Source: a virus (Duplodnaviria; Caudoviricetes). From it: 28,641 bases of DNA. The notes below the pieces were generated by a model. That model was not told the origin of the DNA. It saw only the letters and a list, made by a program, of their open reading frames with translations, and made no database searches. The translations under genes were made by a program, and so were the position numbers. Positions 1,470 to 17,542 of the stretch are shown here, piece by piece; positions within the stretch are counted from its first letter, which is position 1; the number at the start of each line of letters is the position of its first letter. The stretch lies in the IMG/VR virus record IMGVR_UViG_3300012914_000006, positions 1-28,641 of that record; one strand, given 5' to 3'.

Positions 1470-1486
1470 ATGAACTCCAATCAGGG

Positions 1487-1516
1487 GCCCGGCCGCCCGT
1501 GAATGGGCGGCCGGGC
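1487..1516 (-). terminator. GC-rich 12-bp hairpin after the tape measure stop (terminator or processing site)
   Basis: GCCCGGCCGCCC (1487-1498) / GGGCGGCCGGGC (1505-1516); no U-tract. Confidence 0.5.
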
Positions 1517-1523
1517 TAGCGGG

Positions 1524-4298
1524 TTATCGGCGGTCGTACCGCAGGCCACCTTGGGCGGCAACCTTGAACACGCCGTTCTGGTCGATCGTGAACGTGGCCT
1601 CCGCCAGTCCTTCACGGACCGCATCGGCAACCCCGTCACGGGCGGCCCCGGCGTCCACCTTCAGAGCGTGGTTCACCGATCCGTCAACCATCGTGCCCAT
1701 GTCCGAATCGAAACTGGACAGAGGGGCCTGGGCAGCGACCATCATGTCCTCAACTTCACGCTGAGCCATGTAGGCATTCTGCCGGATTCCCTTGGCGAAG
1801 TCCTCGGCCAACGCGCGACCAGACCAGACGGTGTACCCCTTTCCGGAGAACGCGCCTTCCTTGGCTGGGCTGAACGGGAACAGGCCGCGAAGGGTGTCCA
1901 TCAGACCACCAACGATGGCCTTTGCCTCTGCGAACTTCCGCTTGATACCGTCGATGAATCCGCCGATCAACGCCTTTCCAGCCTCGATCAACAGGTTACC
2001 GAGGCCACTGAACACGTTGCCCGGGAGGTCGTCCAACCACTTACGGATCTTGCCGGACCATTCGCCCGTGCCATCTCCGAACAGGGAAGTGACAGCCTTG
2101 ATCGCCAATTCAATCGGGACCTTGACGACGTTAATCAGGGTGTCGAGCACTCCGCCGATTCCCTTCACAACGCCGGCCACCATTTCACCCGCGCCACGGA
2201 AGGCCCGATCCCAGTCCCCCGTCAGGAGGCCCACGACCACGTCCACCGTACCCTTGACCCACAGTGCGATTCCCTCGAAGATCGGCTTGATACCGTCAAT
2301 GAAATCGACCACGGCGTCCTTCACATCCCCGAACACCGGGATCAACCGGTCCACGAGAATGCTGATGAACGGGGTGACGTCGCGCACGAGGCCGACCCAC
2401 ATTTCCGTCAGGTCCAGGAGCATCGGAATCAACTCGGGAAGGATCTCCATCAGCCGGGGCAGCGCCTCCGCGACCAACTTGGCCAGTTCGGGCAGCAACG
2501 GAATGATGGCGTCCAGGACATCCACGAACGCCTGAACGAGATCGGGCAGTAGTGGCACGATTGCTTCGAGCGCCGTGAGCATTCCCTCACCGAGCACCCG
2601 GGCCACTTCGATCAACGTCGGGATGGCGTCCGAGATTGCCCCGGCGAATAGCTCTCCCATCTTCGTCAACGCTTCGAGGAACTTCGGAAGGATGGGCATC
2701 AGTGCTTCGAGCGCACCGAGCACCACGCCGCCGATTGCCTCGGCCAGTTCCAGGAGGATCGGGGCCAATGCCTCAATCCCACCAGACAGGATCTTGCCGA
2801 ACACCTGGACCAACGCGATGAACGGCGGAACCAGTTCCTCAATCACGGGGGCCAGTGCAATGATCACGTCGGCCAGGACGTTGCCGAACTGGTAGGCAAT
2901 CGTCCCGATCAACGGAGCGAGTGCGGCCAGTGCACGGCCCAACGGTTCAATGGCCGGCTTCAACGCGTTGAACGCCAACCCGATCGCCGGGCCCAACTTC
3001 AACAGGGCCGGTCCGATGAACTCGGCAACCACCCGGGCAATCTCACTGATCAGCGGAAGGAGACCCTTCATCACACTGCCGATCGCCGTGAAGATGTCTT
3101 CGAGCAACTTCGACCCTTGGGCCGAGTTGAAGAAGTCATCCATTGCCCCGGTGATATTGTCCAGAATCACCAGGAGGCCGCCACCAGTATTCGCCCCCGC
3201 TTGGAACACGGACTCGATGATCCCGGCCACATTCCCGATAATCCGGAAGAGGGCCTGGAACTGGTCGATAGCCTGGTTGATCAGGTCCCGCAGTTCGCCG
3301 GTCTCCCGAACTCGAGAGGCCCAGTCCGCGAATCGCTGGGCAGCCTCTTCGAATCCACCCGTGAGACCAGGCAGCATGGACGAGGCGACGGTGCCGATAT
3401 CCCGGAAGCCTTCGAGAATAGGGACGATGCCCTTGCGAATGTTCGCCAGTGCGCCTTCCGTCCCCTGGAAACTGATCTTCAGATCCTCGAACGTCCGGTC
3501 CGACTTTGCGAACGCAATCACATCGGAGGCCATCCCGTTGAAGACCTTCGCGATTCCTTCCAACGGGGCGCGAAGCTTCGGCAACAGGGTGGACCCGAGG
3601 TCGCGCACCTGATCCGACAGCCCGGCGAACAGGGCTTCCTGGACGCCAAGCTGAAGTTCCTCGAACGCCGGGCGGAGGTCACGGAGGGCCCGTGCCGTTT
3701 CCCGGGCGGCCGGGGCCAACTTGGCAATAGCCTCTTCGAACTTCTCGGGGTCGTCCATCTGGCTCAGGGCGTCCGAGAACCCCTTGAGCCCCAGCTTCAG
3801 GACACCGATCGCCGTCGCGCCAGCCAGCAGCACACCGGGCAACAGGGCCATGATCGGGATCATCTGGGAGATGGACGTCACGAGGGCCGCGCCACCGGTC
3901 GTTGCGGCGAACAGGGCCGTCGACATCGCGCCCAACTTGAGCGTGGTCGCCCCGATCGAGCTGCCCAACTTGAGGGCCGAGACACCAAGACGGACGAGAG
4001 ATCCGCCACCCTTGTCCGAGGACTCGGTGACCTTCCGCGTTTCCGTGTTCATCTTGGCCAACGCGCGTTCGGCCGCCTTGGTGTCCAGGTCCAACTTGGA
4101 CGTGATATCGAAGTTCCGGGACTTCACGTAATCCTGGAACGCGGCAATCTGTACCTTGGCCTTCTCGGTATTGATACTACCGATCTCGATATCAATGGCA
4201 ATCTTGGTATCGATCTTCCGGATTTCCTTTTCGAGGGTCGCCCGGAAGCCACGCATTTCCGGCAGAATGCGCACGCCAATGCTGTCGACGATTTCGAT
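1524..4298 (-). CDS. Tape measure protein (first canonical start GTG 4274; frame open to 4304; possible ATC start at 4298)
   Basis: ~920 aa Ala/Leu/Ile/Gly-rich protein with amphipathic Pro-periodic repeats and the C-terminal PFSPAKEGAFSGKGY motif of actinophage TMPs; follows the tail chaperones. Confidence 0.95.
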   Translation of the reverse strand: MEIVDSIGVRILPEMRGFRATLEKEIRKIDTKIAIDIEIGSINTEKAKVQIAAFQDYVKSRNFDITSKLDLDTKAAERALAKMNTETRKVTESSDKGGGSLVRLGVSALKLGSSIGATTLKLGAMSTALFAATTGGAALVTSISQMIPIMALLPGVLLAGATAIGVLKLGLKGFSDALSQMDDPEKFEEAIAKLAPAARETARALRDLRPAFEELQLGVQEALFAGLSDQVRDLGSTLLPKLRAPLEGIAKVFNGMASDVIAFAKSDRTFEDLKISFQGTEGALANIRKGIVPILEGFRDIGTVASSMLPGLTGGFEEAAQRFADWASRVRETGELRDLINQAIDQFQALFRIIGNVAGIIESVFQAGANTGGGLLVILDNITGAMDDFFNSAQGSKLLEDIFTAIGSVMKGLLPLISEIARVVAEFIGPALLKLGPAIGLAFNALKPAIEPLGRALAALAPLIGTIAYQFGNVLADVIIALAPVIEELVPPFIALVQVFGKILSGGIEALAPILLELAEAIGGVVLGALEALMPILPKFLEALTKMGELFAGAISDAIPTLIEVARVLGEGMLTALEAIVPLLPDLVQAFVDVLDAIIPLLPELAKLVAEALPRLMEILPELIPMLLDLTEMWVGLVRDVTPFISILVDRLIPVFGDVKDAVVDFIDGIKPIFEGIALWVKGTVDVVVGLLTGDWDRAFRGAGEMVAGVVKGIGGVLDTLINVVKVPIELAIKAVTSLFGDGTGEWSGKIRKWLDDLPGNVFSGLGNLLIEAGKALIGGFIDGIKRKFAEAKAIVGGLMDTLRGLFPFSPAKEGAFSGKGYTVWSGRALAEDFAKGIRQNAYMAQREVEDMMVAAQAPLSSFDSDMGTMVDGSVNHALKVDAGAARDGVADAVREGLAEATFTIDQNGVFKVAAQGGLRYDRR

Positions 4299-13936: not shown

Positions 13937-14830
13937 TCAGGTCTGCGGGTGCAGGCTCTTGATGAGGGCCGTCAGGTCGTCCACGGCCTTCTGGAGCTTG
14001 TCCGTCTTCTTCTCGATGTCCGAGACACTGCGGCCGATCGACTCGCCGGACTGGACGTAGTTGTCCGCCAGGACGCCGTAGACCTGGTGCAGGAGTTCGG
14101 CCGCCGGGATGCCGGAGTACTCCTGGACGTCGTCGAGGAACTGCTGGATGTTCGCGATCACCTGTCCCTGCGACGTGCCGGTCTGGACGTAGGGCTTCGC
14201 GGTCTCGTCGTACATCTGCTGTTGCTGGTTCGGGGTCAGGCCCATCAGGAATTCCTCCGTAAGCGGTTGGTTGTCGATGTCCCAGCGGTACTGGGCAAGG
14301 TCGATCGTGACGCCGGGTGCCTTGCCGGGATCCCACTTGCCGTCACCCGTGTAGCCGTTGGTCTCAGCGTGCCCTCGGATGTACTCCGGGTTGCCGTTGG
14401 CGAAGAGGTCGGCGACCACGCGGCCGAACAGAACGGCGCTCTTGTACTGGGCCTGCGTCATGGGCAAGTTGCCCGGGTAGACGATCTCCAGGCCGACGGT
14501 GCGGCCATTCATGTTCCCCGAGACACTGGCCAACGGGCCCAGCGACGGACCGGCACCCCGGCCAGCGTGGTACGCGAGACCCGAGGCGATCACGGTCAAG
14601 GAGCCGTCCGAGTTCCCGGCGAAGTTGCACAGGGCTCCCTGGAGGTCCGGGCGGCCGGTCACGAGGACCTGGAACGCCGAACCGTACGGAGTGGCCGTGT
14701 GATGGATGACGGCCCCGACCGGGTTGATCTGCGAAATGCCCCCGTTGCCTCGGCCATCCCAGCCGGGCCATTCGTGCACCGTGGCACCCCGACGGCGTAG
14801 TTCATTCACGATGTCGCGGACGGCACCCAT
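13937..14830 (-). CDS. Endolysin, N-acetylmuramoyl-L-alanine amidase (Amidase_2) with helical C-terminal region
   Basis: IHHTA, AYHAG, VGLEI, IRGHAE and K.DP zinc amidase motifs. Confidence 0.92.
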   Translation of the reverse strand: MGAVRDIVNELRRRGATVHEWPGWDGRGNGGISQINPVGAVIHHTATPYGSAFQVLVTGRPDLQGALCNFAGNSDGSLTVIASGLAYHAGRGAGPSLGPLASVSGNMNGRTVGLEIVYPGNLPMTQAQYKSAVLFGRVVADLFANGNPEYIRGHAETNGYTGDGKWDPGKAPGVTIDLAQYRWDIDNQPLTEEFLMGLTPNQQQQMYDETAKPYVQTGTSQGQVIANIQQFLDDVQEYSGIPAAELLHQVYGVLADNYVQSGESIGRSVSDIEKKTDKLQKAVDDLTALIKSLHPQT

Positions 14831-14845
14831 GTCTGATCACCCTTC

Positions 14846-15358
14846 TTACCCTTGATGGAGGTCCGTCATCAGTGACTCGATGGACGAACCGTATGTGGAA
14901 CTGGCGGCCCAGCGGCCACTGAGTTCGGCGAAGTGTTGCAGGGCGTACCGGCCCCGGATGAGGTCGAAACGCGGGTCCACGAGGCCCACAGGGACGTCGC
15001 ACCCGGTGTACGCGATGAGGTGTTGGGCGTGCGCCAGGGCCCCGATCTCCCAGGACGGGAAGACCTGGTGCGCGAACCGTTCGTAGTCCGTGTCGCCCTG
15101 GAGGCCCAGGCTCTCGGGGTTCCTGACCTTCAGGCCGCACGTGTTCATCCACGCGGCGGACAGGACTCCGGTGTACCGGCCCCAGGCGGTCTCTTTGGCG
15201 GACTGAGCGACCATGCCGACCGGGTTGACGTGCTCCGTGAGGGCGGCGTCCCAGAGGGCCGGGAACATGGTGTCCGTGAACAGGGTGGAAGCCTTCTTGC
15301 GCACGAGGGCCTGGCGAACGGTCTCGTACGATGCGGTTGCGGGTCCCAGGATGAACAC
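14846..15358 (-). CDS. Glucosaminidase-like (GH73) peptidoglycan hydrolase
   Basis: 170 aa, AGGAGG RBS; AQSAKETAWG catalytic Glu, N.CGLK, F.SW..G, and WAASSTYG equivalent to YATD..Y. Confidence 0.8.
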   Translation of the reverse strand: MFILGPATASYETVRQALVRKKASTLFTDTMFPALWDAALTEHVNPVGMVAQSAKETAWGRYTGVLSAAWMNTCGLKVRNPESLGLQGDTDYERFAHQVFPSWEIGALAHAQHLIAYTGCDVPVGLVDPRFDLIRGRYALQHFAELSGRWAASSTYGSSIESLMTDLHQG

Positions 15359-15386: not shown

Positions 15387-15692
15387 TCAATCTGTGGAAG
15401 TAGGTGGACAGAAGTCGCAGCCGGAGCAACGCTGAACGTGCGTCCTCATCCGGTGGCAGTTGGCGCACACGAGATCACACTTCAATGACTCGGTGTACTG
15501 ACGGTCGTAAGAACGGCAGATGCCCTCACCCACTCCGAAGGACTTCTCGGACGGGTCTCTGTGATCGAAGTCGTACATGAACGCGGGACCGGTGAAGCCG
15601 CAATCGAGGCACTTGCCTCCGTGAACTTCAACCAGTTTCCGCTTGGTTCGCTGCCGCCACAAGGTGACCTGTGCGCCGTTACTACCTGGCAT
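15387..15692 (-). CDS. HNH endonuclease adjacent to the tRNA array
   Basis: 101 aa; CLDCG, DFDHRDP..K, KCDLVCANCHR.RT. Confidence 0.85.
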   Translation of the reverse strand: MPGSNGAQVTLWRQRTKRKLVEVHGGKCLDCGFTGPAFMYDFDHRDPSEKSFGVGEGICRSYDRQYTESLKCDLVCANCHRMRTHVQRCSGCDFCPPTSTD

Positions 15693-15720
15693 TCGAATTC
15701 CCTCCGTTACAAGGATCTTG

Positions 15721-15794
15721 CTCCGCCCAGTGGATTCGAACCACTAACCATCGGGGTAACGGCCCGACGCTCTGCCAGATTGAGCTAGAACGGA
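15721..15794 (-). tRNA. tRNA-Asn(GTT), C33 instead of U33, no encoded CCA
   Basis: TCCGTTC TA GCTC AATCTGGCA GAGC G TCGGG CCGTTAC CCCGA TGGTT AGTGG TTCGAAT CCACT GGGCGGA G. Confidence 0.9.
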
Positions 15795-15877
15795 TCGAGA
15801 GCAGTCGCGCGCTACCCGGCCGCCCGAGTAGAACCACTGTCCCATCTGTGCCTACCCGTTGACGGAAGGGCAGTTTG

Positions 15878-15945
15878 TCCCACGTCGAGGAATCGAACCT
15901 CGGACACACCGGTTTACAGCCAGCGTTGCGCCCAGCGCACTTGGG
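15878..15945 (-). tRNA. Atypical tRNA-Tyr(GTA), 68 nt, minimal D-arm, C1-G72, no long variable arm
   Basis: CCCAAGT GCGC TGG GCGC A ACGCTGG CTGTAAA CCGGTGT GTC CGAGG TTCGATT CCTCG ACGTGGG A. Confidence 0.75.
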
Positions 15946-16108
15946 TTGGCGATACGGCCCCCGTCGCCCCGACTACTAGGCGAGGATCAACGGGGGCCGC
16001 ACGTTAGGTGATGGCTTGCCGGGCCATCCGGCTACCATCTGTTCTCTCGATTGCCACCTGTGCACCCACTACGGATGCGCCCTGTGCTGACCACAGATGG
16101 ACGTGAAG

Positions 16109-16183
16109 GGGCGGAGGCAGGATTTGAACCTGCGACCGACGGCGTATGAAACCGCTGAGCTGACCTGGCTGCTCTACTCCGCC
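16109..16183 (-). tRNA. tRNA with CAT anticodon on an initiator-like body (Met/fMet-like, atypical)
   Basis: GGCGGAG TA GAGC AGCCAGGTCA GCTC A GCGGT TTCATAC GCCGT CGGTC GCAGG TTCAAAT CCTGC CTCCGCC C. Confidence 0.88.
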
Positions 16184-16293
16184 CTGTGTGCCTGGCCGCC
16201 CTAAGCATCGTGGTGTGCTGAACGGCGGCCAGGCCCTCCTAGCGTCCACCGGGGTCCTTCATAAGGACGGCCGTAACGCCTGGAGGAAGTTTC

Positions 16294-16450
16294 ACCGGTG
16301 CTCTGCCAATTGAGCTAGACCGCCCGTCACCAGCGATTCCTAGCAACCAGCCTGCCCGGTCGACTGTGCACAGTCTTGCGGGACGCCTGTATCGCTGGTC
16401 CTGACCTGGCTACCATGACGGCCGAGGGATTCCAACCCCCAACCTCCGGC
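16294..16450 (-). ncRNA. Circularly permuted tRNA-like module 2 (T-arm before D-arm, 92-nt linker closing the acceptor stem)
   Basis: GCCGG AGGTT GGGGG TTGGAAT CCCTC GGCCGTC [92 nt] GGCGGTC TA GCTC AATTGGCA GAGC A CCGGT. Confidence 0.65.
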
Positions 16451-16452
16451 TA

Positions 16453-16523
16453 TCCGATACTCTGCCTCTGAGCTACCCGAATGCTAGGCAAACGGGAAGG
16501 GACTCGAACCCTTGACCTTCGGA
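16453..16523 (-). ncRNA. Circularly permuted tRNA-like module 1 (YrlA/Y RNA-like)
   Basis: TCCGA AGGTC AAGGG TTCGAGT CCCTT CCCG TT TGC CTA GCA TT CGGG TA GCTC AGAGGCA GAGT A TCGGA. Confidence 0.78.
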
Positions 16524-16526
16524 ACG

Positions 16527-16597
16527 CTCACAGTGCCGGTAATGCTCCGGCAACAGGGTCCGGTTGAGGGACCCCGACATCTTTTGTCAGACTGTGA
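16527..16597 (-). tRNA. tRNA-like cloverleaf, nominal anticodon CAA, non-canonical D- and T-loops
   Basis: TCACAGT CT GACA AAAGA TGTC G GGGTCC CTCAACC GGACCC TGTT GCCGG AGCATTA CCGGC ACTGTGA G; all four stems fully paired. Confidence 0.65.
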
Positions 16598-16727
16598 CCC
16601 CTGAGTCTCGCTCTCAGGACGACAGTGGATCAGACCATCGTGTGCGTAGGGCTGGCCGGCCCTACTATGATCTTCGCCCCGGTTCGACCGATTGTTGTCG
16701 GCCGTCCGTGTGACGATGATCAGTACG

Positions 16728-16795
16728 CGCCCCGTCCAGGTGTCGAACCTGGCTCACTGGGTTTTGGAGACCCGGTGCCTCCCGGAGGACTGGAC
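16728..16795 (-). tRNA. Atypical tRNA-Trp(CCA), 68 nt, minimal D-arm
   Basis: GTCCAGT CCTC CGG GAGG C ACCGGGT CTCCAAA ACCCAGT GAG CCAGG TTCGACA CCTGG ACGGGGC G. Confidence 0.75.
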
Positions 16796-16879
16796 TGGGT
16801 TACCACACGAACAGTTGACGGTCTGATCAGGCGCGATTGCGACGACTCCTGTGTGCCGACGAACTGAACGTGTGGTCCG

Positions 16880-17023
16880 AGGTCACCCGAGGATTCGAAC
16901 CCCGGACACTCCGCTTATGGGCGGCTGCTCTGTCCCGACACACTGACAACCATCATCTGGTTGCCGCCCTCCGTCGAGGGTGCCCCTTACAGTCAGGCGG
17001 CGTGGCATCTGAGCTAGGTGACC
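16880..17023 (-). tRNA. tRNA-like gene (CAT in a 6-nt loop) with an 80-nt D-loop
   Basis: GGTCACC TA GCTC [80 nt] GAGC A G CCGC CCATAA GCGG A GTGTC CGGGG TTCGAAT CCTCG GGTGACC T. Confidence 0.72.
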
Positions 17024-17029
17024 ATGGCG

Positions 17030-17107
17030 TCCGTCCACCGGGCCCTAGTCAGTCGCGGTGACCGATGTGACCTTTAATGGGGGCTCACGGGATGCCCGGT
17101 GGACGGA
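17030..17107 (-). ncRNA. Structured element: 14-bp stem enclosing two small hairpins
   Basis: TCCGTCCACCGGGC / GCCCGGTGGACGGA; inner GTGA..TCAC and TCGGTC/GACTGA on the minus strand. Confidence 0.5.
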
Positions 17108-17215
17108 GCGAAGGTGACCAGGACTTACACCGTGAGGCTGCCTGGAACGTCTGTTACGACGTGCGGAGAGCAGATGATCGGCGACTGGCGCTCTGATCTC
17201 TTTGCTTCCCGGATT

Positions 17216-17224
17216 AGTGTAGCA
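17216..17224 (-). promoter_or_regulatory. Extended -10 promoter candidate for the RNA array
   Basis: TGC-TACACT just upstream of the first structured element; no consensus -35. Confidence 0.45.
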
Positions 17225-17260
17225 CAGGTGCACAATACCCCGTGACCTGCGATAACGCGG

Positions 17261-17542
17261 TTACTGACGACGGAACCTCTTGGACTTGGGCTCCGGTTCG
17301 ACGGGCGGATCGACTTCCAGGGGCACCTGGTCCATGCCCTCGATTTCCGGCTGGCTGATGACCAGGTGGACGGCGGCCGGGCCGAACATGTAGATCCGAC
17401 CAGGACGAAGGGGGGAGGTGACCGAGTGGCCGCCCCCTTCCATCACGGTCCACGACAACGAGGCGAAGAACTCAGGGTCGTTGAACTCACGAGGGACCAG
17501 CGGGGCGAAATCCGCTGCCCAGACAATCAGAAGGTTGTTCAC
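17261..17542 (-). CDS. Hypothetical protein (93 aa)
   Basis: GTGA overlap with the upstream ORF; AGGGG RBS. Confidence 0.7.
   Translation of the reverse strand: MNNLLIVWAADFAPLVPREFNDPEFFASLSWTVMEGGGHSVTSPLRPGRIYMFGPAAVHLVISQPEIEGMDQVPLEVDPPVEPEPKSKRFRRQ

Follow-up and report, generated by a model that had tools for sequence, protein, structure and literature searches.

A 1.5-kb region of the IMG/VR record IMGVR_UViG_3300012914_000006 carries a real array of RNA units, under selection and heterogeneous in composition, in which eight tRNA-shaped units are interspersed with folded modules. Two of the units, a tRNA-Trp and a tRNA-Tyr, share a compact fold that appears to be an undescribed and widespread natural tRNA architecture. 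The window, meaning the whole stretch of DNA analysed (28,641 nt), is a linear virus record of about 46% completeness, and the array lies between an open reading frame (ORF) of unassigned product (17261–17542) and an HNH endonuclease gene (15387–15692). All of the array features described below are on the minus strand. We give about an even chance to the reading that this is an RNA locus under purifying selection, which would combine working tRNAs that top up tRNA pools with tRNA-shaped decoys, made as one transcript and cut by host enzymes.

The original prediction, made from the letters of the window alone, was that the stretch holds no credible coding sequence (CDS). All 10 ORFs of at least 50 aa overlapping the array received negative scores from a codon model (−0.06 to −0.57), while nine of nine flanking genes scored positive (0.02 to 0.41), the model having been trained on these same nine genes, and a hidden CDS was ruled out on this basis. 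The eight predicted tRNA-shaped units were all recovered, seven of them as 5-bp T-arm hairpins and the eighth as a cloverleaf with a CAA anticodon and no T-loop (the CAA unit). Annotation tools captured the array only in part, as had been anticipated from the manual folds. ARAGORN with default settings called four of the eight (Asn, Tyr, Met and Trp), and the gathering threshold of Rfam RF00005 was passed by Met (61.1 bits) and Asn (57.5 bits), with the other six failing. Relaxing ARAGORN to 90% gained the CAA unit and a unit with a large insert in its D-loop (the D-insert unit), together with four calls outside the array.

Each of the eight units breaks at least one near-invariant tRNA feature. 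Asn has C33 and Met has G-1:C73. Trp and Tyr lack U8 and A14 and have a 3-nt D-loop, the CAA unit lacks GG and TΨC, the D-insert unit has a 6-nt anticodon loop, and the remaining two units are in permuted order. The earlier statement that no tRNA is canonical therefore stands within the window; it does not extend to the family, as both related arrays described below have a canonical Asn with U33. CCA is encoded by none of the six units in normal order, again as predicted, and a free acceptor end is missing from both permuted units. Absence of an encoded CCA is common in actinobacteria. The original reading did not extend to the membership of Trp and Tyr in a widespread structural class, to the YrlA type of the permuted units or to the conservation of several spacers as modules.

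Conservation of the array in related phages

A terminase scan of viral contigs gave 10 loci, two of which were close to the window (L001, 88%; L002, 73%). In each of them an array lies upstream of the glucosaminidase gene, the same place as in the window. No fourth carrier was found, L001 and L002 being the only close loci in scans with the terminase (2/10), glucosaminidase (2/6) and capsid (2/2) genes, and a blastn search of 50,697 phage records with the array matched only its HNH, Met and Asn parts.

The window and L001 differ at 205 of 503 four-fold sites in four genes (41%); for L002 the corresponding figure is 354 of 593 in five genes. Four array modules are far more similar to those in L001, with 5/143 sites differing in the D-insert unit, 1/49 in a double hairpin, 6/73 in permuted unit 1 and 5/77 in Met. 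This amounts to 2–8% (binomial p <1e-9 for each against the synonymous rate), or 5- to 20-fold under the divergence of synonymous sites. Two-sided compensatory changes were counted in five modules (3, 4, 6, 2 and 6, giving 21) against one broken pair, with the structures drawn from the very sequences tested, which favours such pairing counts. Because low divergence is accompanied by compensating changes in the stems, decay is unlikely, and the predicted selection on shape was upheld.

It is most improbable that the array is a decaying tRNA cluster whose structure reflects its origin from tRNAs and the recent common descent of its modules. Several spacers of the window have no homolog detectable by blastn in the two relatives, only three genomes are involved, the T-loops of the CAA unit and of permuted unit 2 are degenerate in the window, and region-wide folding is not significant, all as decay would have it. 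The 21 two-sided changes against one broken pair speak against it, as do the reduced divergence of the modules and the covariation of the compact fold across unrelated phages. Decay is thus unlikely for the shared modules, although the CAA loop and permuted unit 2 may still be cases of it.

The three arrays are mosaic. L001 lacks Trp and Tyr, and L002 lacks the D-insert unit and Met. The double hairpin, the slot holding the cloverleaf and a permuted unit adjoin one another in the same order in each of the three phages; modules further downstream differ in L002. An identical 18-nt hairpin is present in L001 (3805–3822) and L002 (987–1004) and missing from the window. A search for DUF2828 found none in four records, with the control likewise giving no match.

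Compact tRNA-Trp and tRNA-Tyr

The compact tRNA-Trp(CCA) (16728–16795) has G73, a 7-bp acceptor stem that includes A5·G68, no linker, a 4-bp D stem, a 3-nt D-loop, a standard T arm and a 6-bp anticodon stem containing one mismatch. The compact tRNA-Tyr(GTA) (15878–15945) folds in the same way, with A73, C1-G72 and no long variable arm. In the fold common to the two, the 7-bp acceptor stem runs directly onto the 4-bp D stem with its 3-nt YGG loop, followed by two linker bases, the 6-bp anticodon stem with a standard 7-nt loop, three or four variable bases and the standard T arm. Both retain GG and TΨC. The Tyr ortholog in L002 is 84% identical and has a covarying D stem, G1-C72 and an encoded CCA.

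A first scan for this fold with the anticodon left free returned 10 loci, seven of which had the compact fold (two of them from L002). In the alignment of these seven sequences, 97.4% of cells were paired and 15 of 22 pairs had two-sided changes, a result that none of 500 shuffles reached. A relaxed scan took the first 120 loci per collection, out of about 180 viral and about 130 bacterial-genome stretches estimated in all, and the counts given here are among the matches listed. At least 53 of 122 viral matches passed a strict stem filter, at least 47 of them distinct, and these 47 comprised 43 Trp with G73, two Tyr, one Val and one Met. Among the bacterial-genome matches at least 27 of 120 passed, 25 being Trp, so that Trp makes up about 92% of the 74 distinct strict-fold sequences. 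ARAGORN called 28/47 of the viral and 18/27 of the genome sequences, missing 28 of the 74. When the stem filter was not applied, 106 distinct Trp(CCA) matches were listed, and a full 4/4 D stem was present in 104 of them and the sixth anticodon pair in 92, although the scan pattern had fixed only one D-stem pair. The linker had no nucleotides in 76, one base in 11, two in 11 and was unresolved in eight. G73 was present in 105 and CCA was encoded in 48.

One named isolate, Acinetobacter phage phiAbaA1, has an annotated tRNA-Trp with the compact fold, including an A7-U66 pair. The tRNA-Trp genes of Bacillus phage Mater, Rhodococcus phage Trina and Gordonia phage Boopy, found as BLAST hits, lack the fold (three of the four fetched). 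Among bacterial-genome copies with long flanks, 12 of 15 lie beside at least two other tRNAs, and in six of seven checked genomes a strict compact Trp is accompanied by a Trp gene of ordinary spacing (spacing alone was compared). The coexistence of ordinary Trp genes and the neighbouring tRNAs indicate that the compact Trp is an accessory copy belonging to phages and tRNA arrays. Its conserved G73, anticodon loop and CCA suggest that the Trp class works in translation. The class was not found in Rfam or in the literature searched, which under-represents subscription papers. With a host-like anticodon loop on a different core, the compact Trp and Tyr offer a direct test of why phages carry tRNAs.

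The linker, D-loop, anticodon stem and variable region (3–4 nt) of Trp, Tyr and the wider class all have the dimensions of tRNA-Pyl. They are not tRNA-Pyl itself, as the anticodons are CCA and GTA and GG and TΨC are retained, and a CUA anticodon was found in none of the 74 strict-fold sequences listed, in a scan that required the GG and T-loop motifs. Selenocysteine tRNA was also ruled out for the array (Rfam 18.9 bits against 47; a 7/5 branch and a short variable region).

Two further observations were made in the course of these scans. Outside the strict class, at least 98 distinct tRNA-like matches (L087–L326; Met, Cys, Val, Tyr and others) have a C-YGG-G D hairpin with 1–2-nt linkers or shifted acceptors. 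In L070 (~1397–1485), an RNA of about 90 nt lies directly ahead of a compact tRNA-Trp; with G3·U70 in its acceptor, a T arm of standard form and no tag region, it resembles a miniature version of the tRNA-like domain of transfer-messenger RNA (tmRNA).

The D-insert unit

The D-insert unit (16880–17023) is a 144-nt tRNA body with a 7-bp acceptor stem, U73 and a standard T arm. A 72-nt four-way junction (16937–17008) is inserted between G15 and G18 of the D-loop. The anticodon loop is 6 nt and lacks U33, while U8, the D stem, A14, G15, GG and the T-loop are retained. Comparison with L001 over 41 pairs showed 38 unchanged, two with one-sided changes that keep pairing and one broken. No further member of a D-loop-insert family was detected outside these phages, a scan for the 6-nt loop returning three loci, namely L001, an unrelated tRNA with a normal D arm and a false match. 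The unrelated tRNA (L080, ~1482–1552, reverse strand) is from a 40%-GC phage and has the same 6-nt CAU loop with a D arm of ordinary size.

Permuted units

Permuted unit 1 (16453–16523) consists of a T arm, an acceptor stem closed by a loop and a D arm, the order found in the YrlA Y RNAs. Permuted unit 2 (16294–16450) has a T arm at 16424–16440 (with G56), an acceptor arm of about 106 nt and a D arm at 16300–16317. The YrlA order and the conserved T and D sequences are present in both and also in L001, L002 and L008. Rfam YrlA (RF02553) scored unit 1 at 29.9 bits, the cut-off being 69, and gave 34 bits in L001 and 35.7 bits in G004, with sub-threshold matches also in nine of 14 control genomes. 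Against L001, all 18 pairs of unit 1 are kept, two with two-sided changes. Unit 2 lies inside a closing stem common to L001, where a tip hairpin alone fills the slot. The permuted unit of L002 has a 91-nt acceptor arm and a GNCGAAG motif.

The permuted units could be orphan Y RNAs that capture the host Ro60 (Rsr)–polynucleotide phosphorylase machinery of RNA decay or repair, with the rest of the array being ordinary accessory tRNAs and spacers; we regard this as rather unlikely. The YrlA order and T/D sequences and the motif in the L002 unit agree with it, as does the occurrence of a YrlA-like unit together with the ligase RtcB, and no Ro60, in an unrelated complete phage (G004). On the other side, the Ro60-binding motif GNCGAA(N)G 5′ of the tRNA-like domain is absent before both units of the window, the first base being off in unit 1, and it is also missing from L001. 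No TROVE/Ro60 gene was found in the window, including the 4 kb on each side, or in any of four related records, two of them fragments; G000 (the window record) to G002 are only 35–57% complete and a distant TROVE gene is possible. RtcB was found in one of the four records, that of G004, which has no TROVE. This explanation would also cover only two of the eight units. In L008 (815–1085), from the same complete 56-kb phage G004, a Trp-like unit (47 bits with the compact model), a tRNA-Asn and the YrlA-like unit adjoin each other.

The CAA unit, tRNA(CAU) and tRNA-Asn

The CAA unit (16527–16597; z −3.2) is a cloverleaf derived from a tRNA-Gln, with conserved stems and a T-loop that is degenerate in the window. 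All 22 pairs are kept relative to the Gln(TTG)-like ortholog in L001, with three two-sided changes, a number reached by 61 of 500 shuffles of the two sequences. The anticodon arm matches that of L001 in 17 of 19 columns when inverted and in 13 of 19 directly, which argues that the stems are selected and the anticodon probably is not. The predicted cloverleaf is present, but its CAA anticodon is probably meaningless, the loop apparently being inverted relative to the TTG of L001.

The tRNA(CAU), called Met above (16109–16184), has G1-C72, a possible eighth acceptor pair (G-1:C73) and U31·G39. Its D and T arms are initiator-like. The tRNA-Asn(GTT) (15721–15794) is canonical except for C33. Asn in L001 and L002 is an unrelated canonical gene at the 3′ end of the array, with U33 (62.8 and 61.9 bits).

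Substitutions such as Asn C33 and Met U32/C38 would fit the strongest form of the original reading, under which all or nearly all of the units would be functional tRNAs resistant to nucleases and their odd features would be escape mutations, since changes in the anticodon loops of mycobacteriophage tRNAs are predicted to block cleavage by VapC (PMC10264068). The 6-nt CAU loop in the otherwise ordinary tRNA of an unrelated phage would fit too. We consider this improbable for the array as a whole. A free acceptor end and an anticodon loop are missing from two units, a third has a loop of 6 nt, a fourth lacks TΨC and has an apparently inverted anticodon loop, and the loops of Trp and Tyr are standard.

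Folded modules between the units

The spacers of phage tRNA clusters can themselves be conserved RNA modules. A double hairpin (16600–16641) with near-invariant 9-nt and 7-nt loops retains 13 of 13 pairs in the three phages with six two-sided changes, matched by 1 of 500 shuffles. It was not found beyond these phages, both stems being present in 2/26 viral and 2/24 metagenome loci, all from the same phages. A three-stem rod (16235–16286) with conserved internal loops is shared with L001, and of its 16 pairs six have two-sided changes, one has a one-sided change, one is broken and eight are unchanged. A branched element (16054–16100) immediately follows the 3′ end of a tRNA in each of the three phages and retains 13 of 13 pairs with four two-sided changes (8 of 500 shuffles as high). 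A scan for it returned one locus of 36, the L002 contig, and is a weak negative, as the gaps it allowed did not cover the spacing seen in the window and L001. The double hairpin, rod and branched element were not found in Rfam or in the same literature searched; a set of 10,006 viral RNA models (PMC10690425) may include some of these elements or the compact class.

A 5′ leader hairpin (17145–17163) has a 5-bp stem and a 3′ flank common to the three phages, with loops that vary, and a hairpin at 16190–16234 has a conserved apical part in common with L001. The latter has a z-score of −5.7. Also strongly folded are a multi-stem element (17030–17107) with 14-bp closing arms (inverted repeat I4; z −4.1), a long rod between the D-insert unit and Trp (16802–16876; inverted repeat I6; z −3.4) and a GC-rich rod (15952–16002; z −5.1), though these strong single-module scores belong to hairpins chosen by eye after looking. 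No homologs of these last three elements were detected in the two relatives.

The block at 16190–16641, which takes in the double hairpin, the cloverleaf, both permuted units, the three-stem rod and the hairpin after it, might alternatively be one large multi-domain RNA of the kind represented by GOLLD and ROOL, with the tRNA-like parts as exchangeable domains. The fixed order of double hairpin, cloverleaf slot and permuted unit in the three phages is in keeping with this, as are the different filling in L001 of the closing stem around permuted unit 2, and the HNH gene flanking the array, given that GOLLD and HNH genes are found together with tRNA clusters in mycobacteria (PMC9569102). However, no Rfam match to GOLLD or ROOL was obtained up to E=10 over 15400–17500, which rules out membership of these families, each module folds locally, and the downstream modules differ in L002. 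We therefore hold a single large RNA to be unlikely, if a little less so than the capture of Ro60.

Genomic setting

The minus-strand genes of the window include those for a tape measure protein, capsid, portal, terminase, two lysins, HNH nucleases and a family A DNA polymerase. The nearest isolated phages are actinophages (terminase identity ≤37%), and an actinobacterial host is inferred from this. The HNH gene at 15387–15692, directly downstream of the array on the minus strand, is about 72% like gp28 of Gordonia phage Bachita and had no blastn match in L001 or L002. In T4, segB sits inside the tRNA cluster. Two separate cell-wall hydrolase genes (amidase and glucosaminidase; 13937–15358, minus strand) lie between the array and the terminase genes.

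An extended −10 promoter candidate (TGnTAnnnT, 17216–17224) heads the array as predicted, and the same motif heads the arrays of L001 and L002; the minus strand of the window has four matches to this motif, 17224–17216 being one. A sigma-70 scan found no promoters and no terminators. In all three arrays a TTG-led hexamer is located 8 nt ahead of the −10 hexamer (17230–17235 in the window, ~3026 in L001 and ~75 in L002), a spacing too short for a sigma-70 −35.

Two other identities were considered for the array and rejected. A tmRNA, including two-piece forms, was called neither by ARAGORN nor by Rfam, and the direct repeats, which could suggest a CRISPR-like array, are mostly tRNA motifs.

Proposed function

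The favoured reading, of working tRNAs combined with decoys, proceeds from what is observed directly, namely the folds and how they are conserved, the lack of a CDS and the broad distribution of the compact Trp class. Transcription would start from the extended −10 at 17224 and give a single transcript, from which host RNase P, 3′ trimming and CCA addition would release the units. Host synthetases would charge Trp, through G73 and the anticodon, and Asn. The units with intact acceptor, anticodon and T arms, namely Asn, the compact Trp, the CAU tRNA and the compact Tyr, would then top up tRNA pools in infection, and those with no usable anticodon loop or free acceptor end would act as decoys for host tRNA-binding defence proteins. 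The tRNA mimics that had been predicted are present, as the permuted pair, the D-insert unit and the CAA cloverleaf. A decoy role for them is the most speculative part of the proposal; it is suggested by the D-insert unit and permuted unit 1, which keep the elbow formed by the D-loop GG and the T-loop and have an anticodon loop that is shortened or missing, and by L002 (317–374), which adds a tRNA with acceptor, D and T arms and no anticodon arm (Rfam 43.7 bits).

Several points weigh against this reading. A full elbow is missing in two of the four mimics, as the CAA unit has no T-loop and permuted unit 2 has G56, and L001 has no counterpart of the tRNA part of unit 2. There is no named partner for the decoys, and a literature search for phage tRNA mimics acting as decoys returned reviews only. 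The Tyr of the window may not be charged by bacterial tyrosyl-tRNA synthetase, because C1-G72 and the lack of a variable arm are the archaeal identity set for tRNA-Tyr (PMC5370408). The G-1:C73 of the CAU unit recalls G-1 irregular tRNAs that were charged by histidyl-tRNA synthetase and not used in translation (PMC5389517). The anticodon loops of Trp and Tyr are standard and carry no escape mutation. Recent exchange of modules could also give low divergence, with three genomes only, and the pairing pattern therefore carries more weight than divergence. Finally, folding of the array in tiles was not significantly above that of coding DNA (mean z −1.10 for 12 tiles against −0.49 for 21; p=0.075), which goes against the original picture of multi-stem elements between the units.

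Supply of tRNA is a known counter-defence (PMC10264068, PMC11555353). In mycobacteria, tRNA-Trp is cleaved by five VapCs, of which VapC37 cuts the host tRNA in the A36–A39 stretch (PMC5175351), and phages escape retron Eco7 when additional phage tRNA-Tyr is supplied (PMC11555353). The Trp loop of the window is unchanged, including A36–A39. As the Trp and Tyr loops are standard, any resistance to nucleases would come from the rebuilt tRNA core. It is possible, though we would advance it only tentatively, that the whole is an all-RNA anti-defence cassette, in which a core like that of tRNA-Pyl would evade host tRNA nucleases with the loop kept, accompanied by decoys reduced to the elbow and by uncatalogued modules.

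Comparison with known systems

Non-tRNA RNAs in phage tRNA clusters, YrlA RNAs and polycistrons of irregular tRNAs are all known kinds. The array resembles the anti-defence tRNAs of phages (PMC10264068, PMC11555353) in carrying isotypes targeted by host nucleases. Those tRNAs are altered in the anticodon loop or in dosage, whereas in Trp and Tyr here the loop is retained and the core altered, and half of the units in the array cannot be ordinary tRNAs. Polycistrons of irregular tRNAs and allo-tRNAs are likewise arrays of non-canonical tRNAs, include G-1 species and were linked by their authors to toxin–antitoxin systems (PMC5389517). Known from metatranscriptomes of acidobacteria, they have acceptor branches of 8/4 or 9/3 or an extra loop, unlike the array, with its 5-bp T stems and actinophage-like carrier.

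The permuted units share with the YrlA Y RNA (RF02553; PMC4201824) the order of the arms, the T and D sequences and a closing stem that replaces the anticodon arm. They differ in having no Ro60 within 4 kb, an imperfect motif, scores of 29.9–35.7 bits against 69 and a position embedded in a tRNA array, and unit 2 in its 106-nt acceptor arm.

The D-insert unit may provide a second example of the plan of T4 species 1 RNA (rnaC, 139 nt; NC_000866), one of the expressed non-tRNA RNAs in the T4 tRNA cluster (PMC9697503), reported to be of unknown function (PMC9697503, PMC12685909). Both are about 140 nt, belong to a phage tRNA cluster and have a standard T arm, and in the predicted folds both have a very large D arm and a 6-nt loop on an anticodon-type hairpin. 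Where the insert forms a four-way junction in this unit, that of T4 is a long rod, and U8, the D stem, A14-G15 and GG are kept here, unlike in rnaC. T4 was not among the 33 phage records hit by blastn with the array, and Rfam has no family model for an RNA of this type.

The compact class is closest in form to the tRNA-Pyl of Methanomethylophilus alvus (PMC7609411), with which it shares a linker of 0–1 nt, a small D-loop, a 6-bp anticodon stem and a variable region of 3–4 nt. The D-loop is 3 nt in the compact class and 4 nt in M. alvus tRNA-Pyl, and a host synthetase is presumed here. The type I mitochondrial tRNA-Ser(UCN) (PMC7609411) and the synthetic ZtRNA (PMC6337575) have the same compact scaffold and keep GG and TΨC as found here. 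Synthetic tRNAs and hybrids on the Pyl scaffold, including one with no linker, translate in E. coli (PMC6337575). The compact class thus mirrors a scaffold that has so far been built synthetically for genetic code expansion. Here the scaffold is natural, occurs in phages and bacterial tRNA arrays, and carries sense anticodons, about 92% of them Trp with G73.

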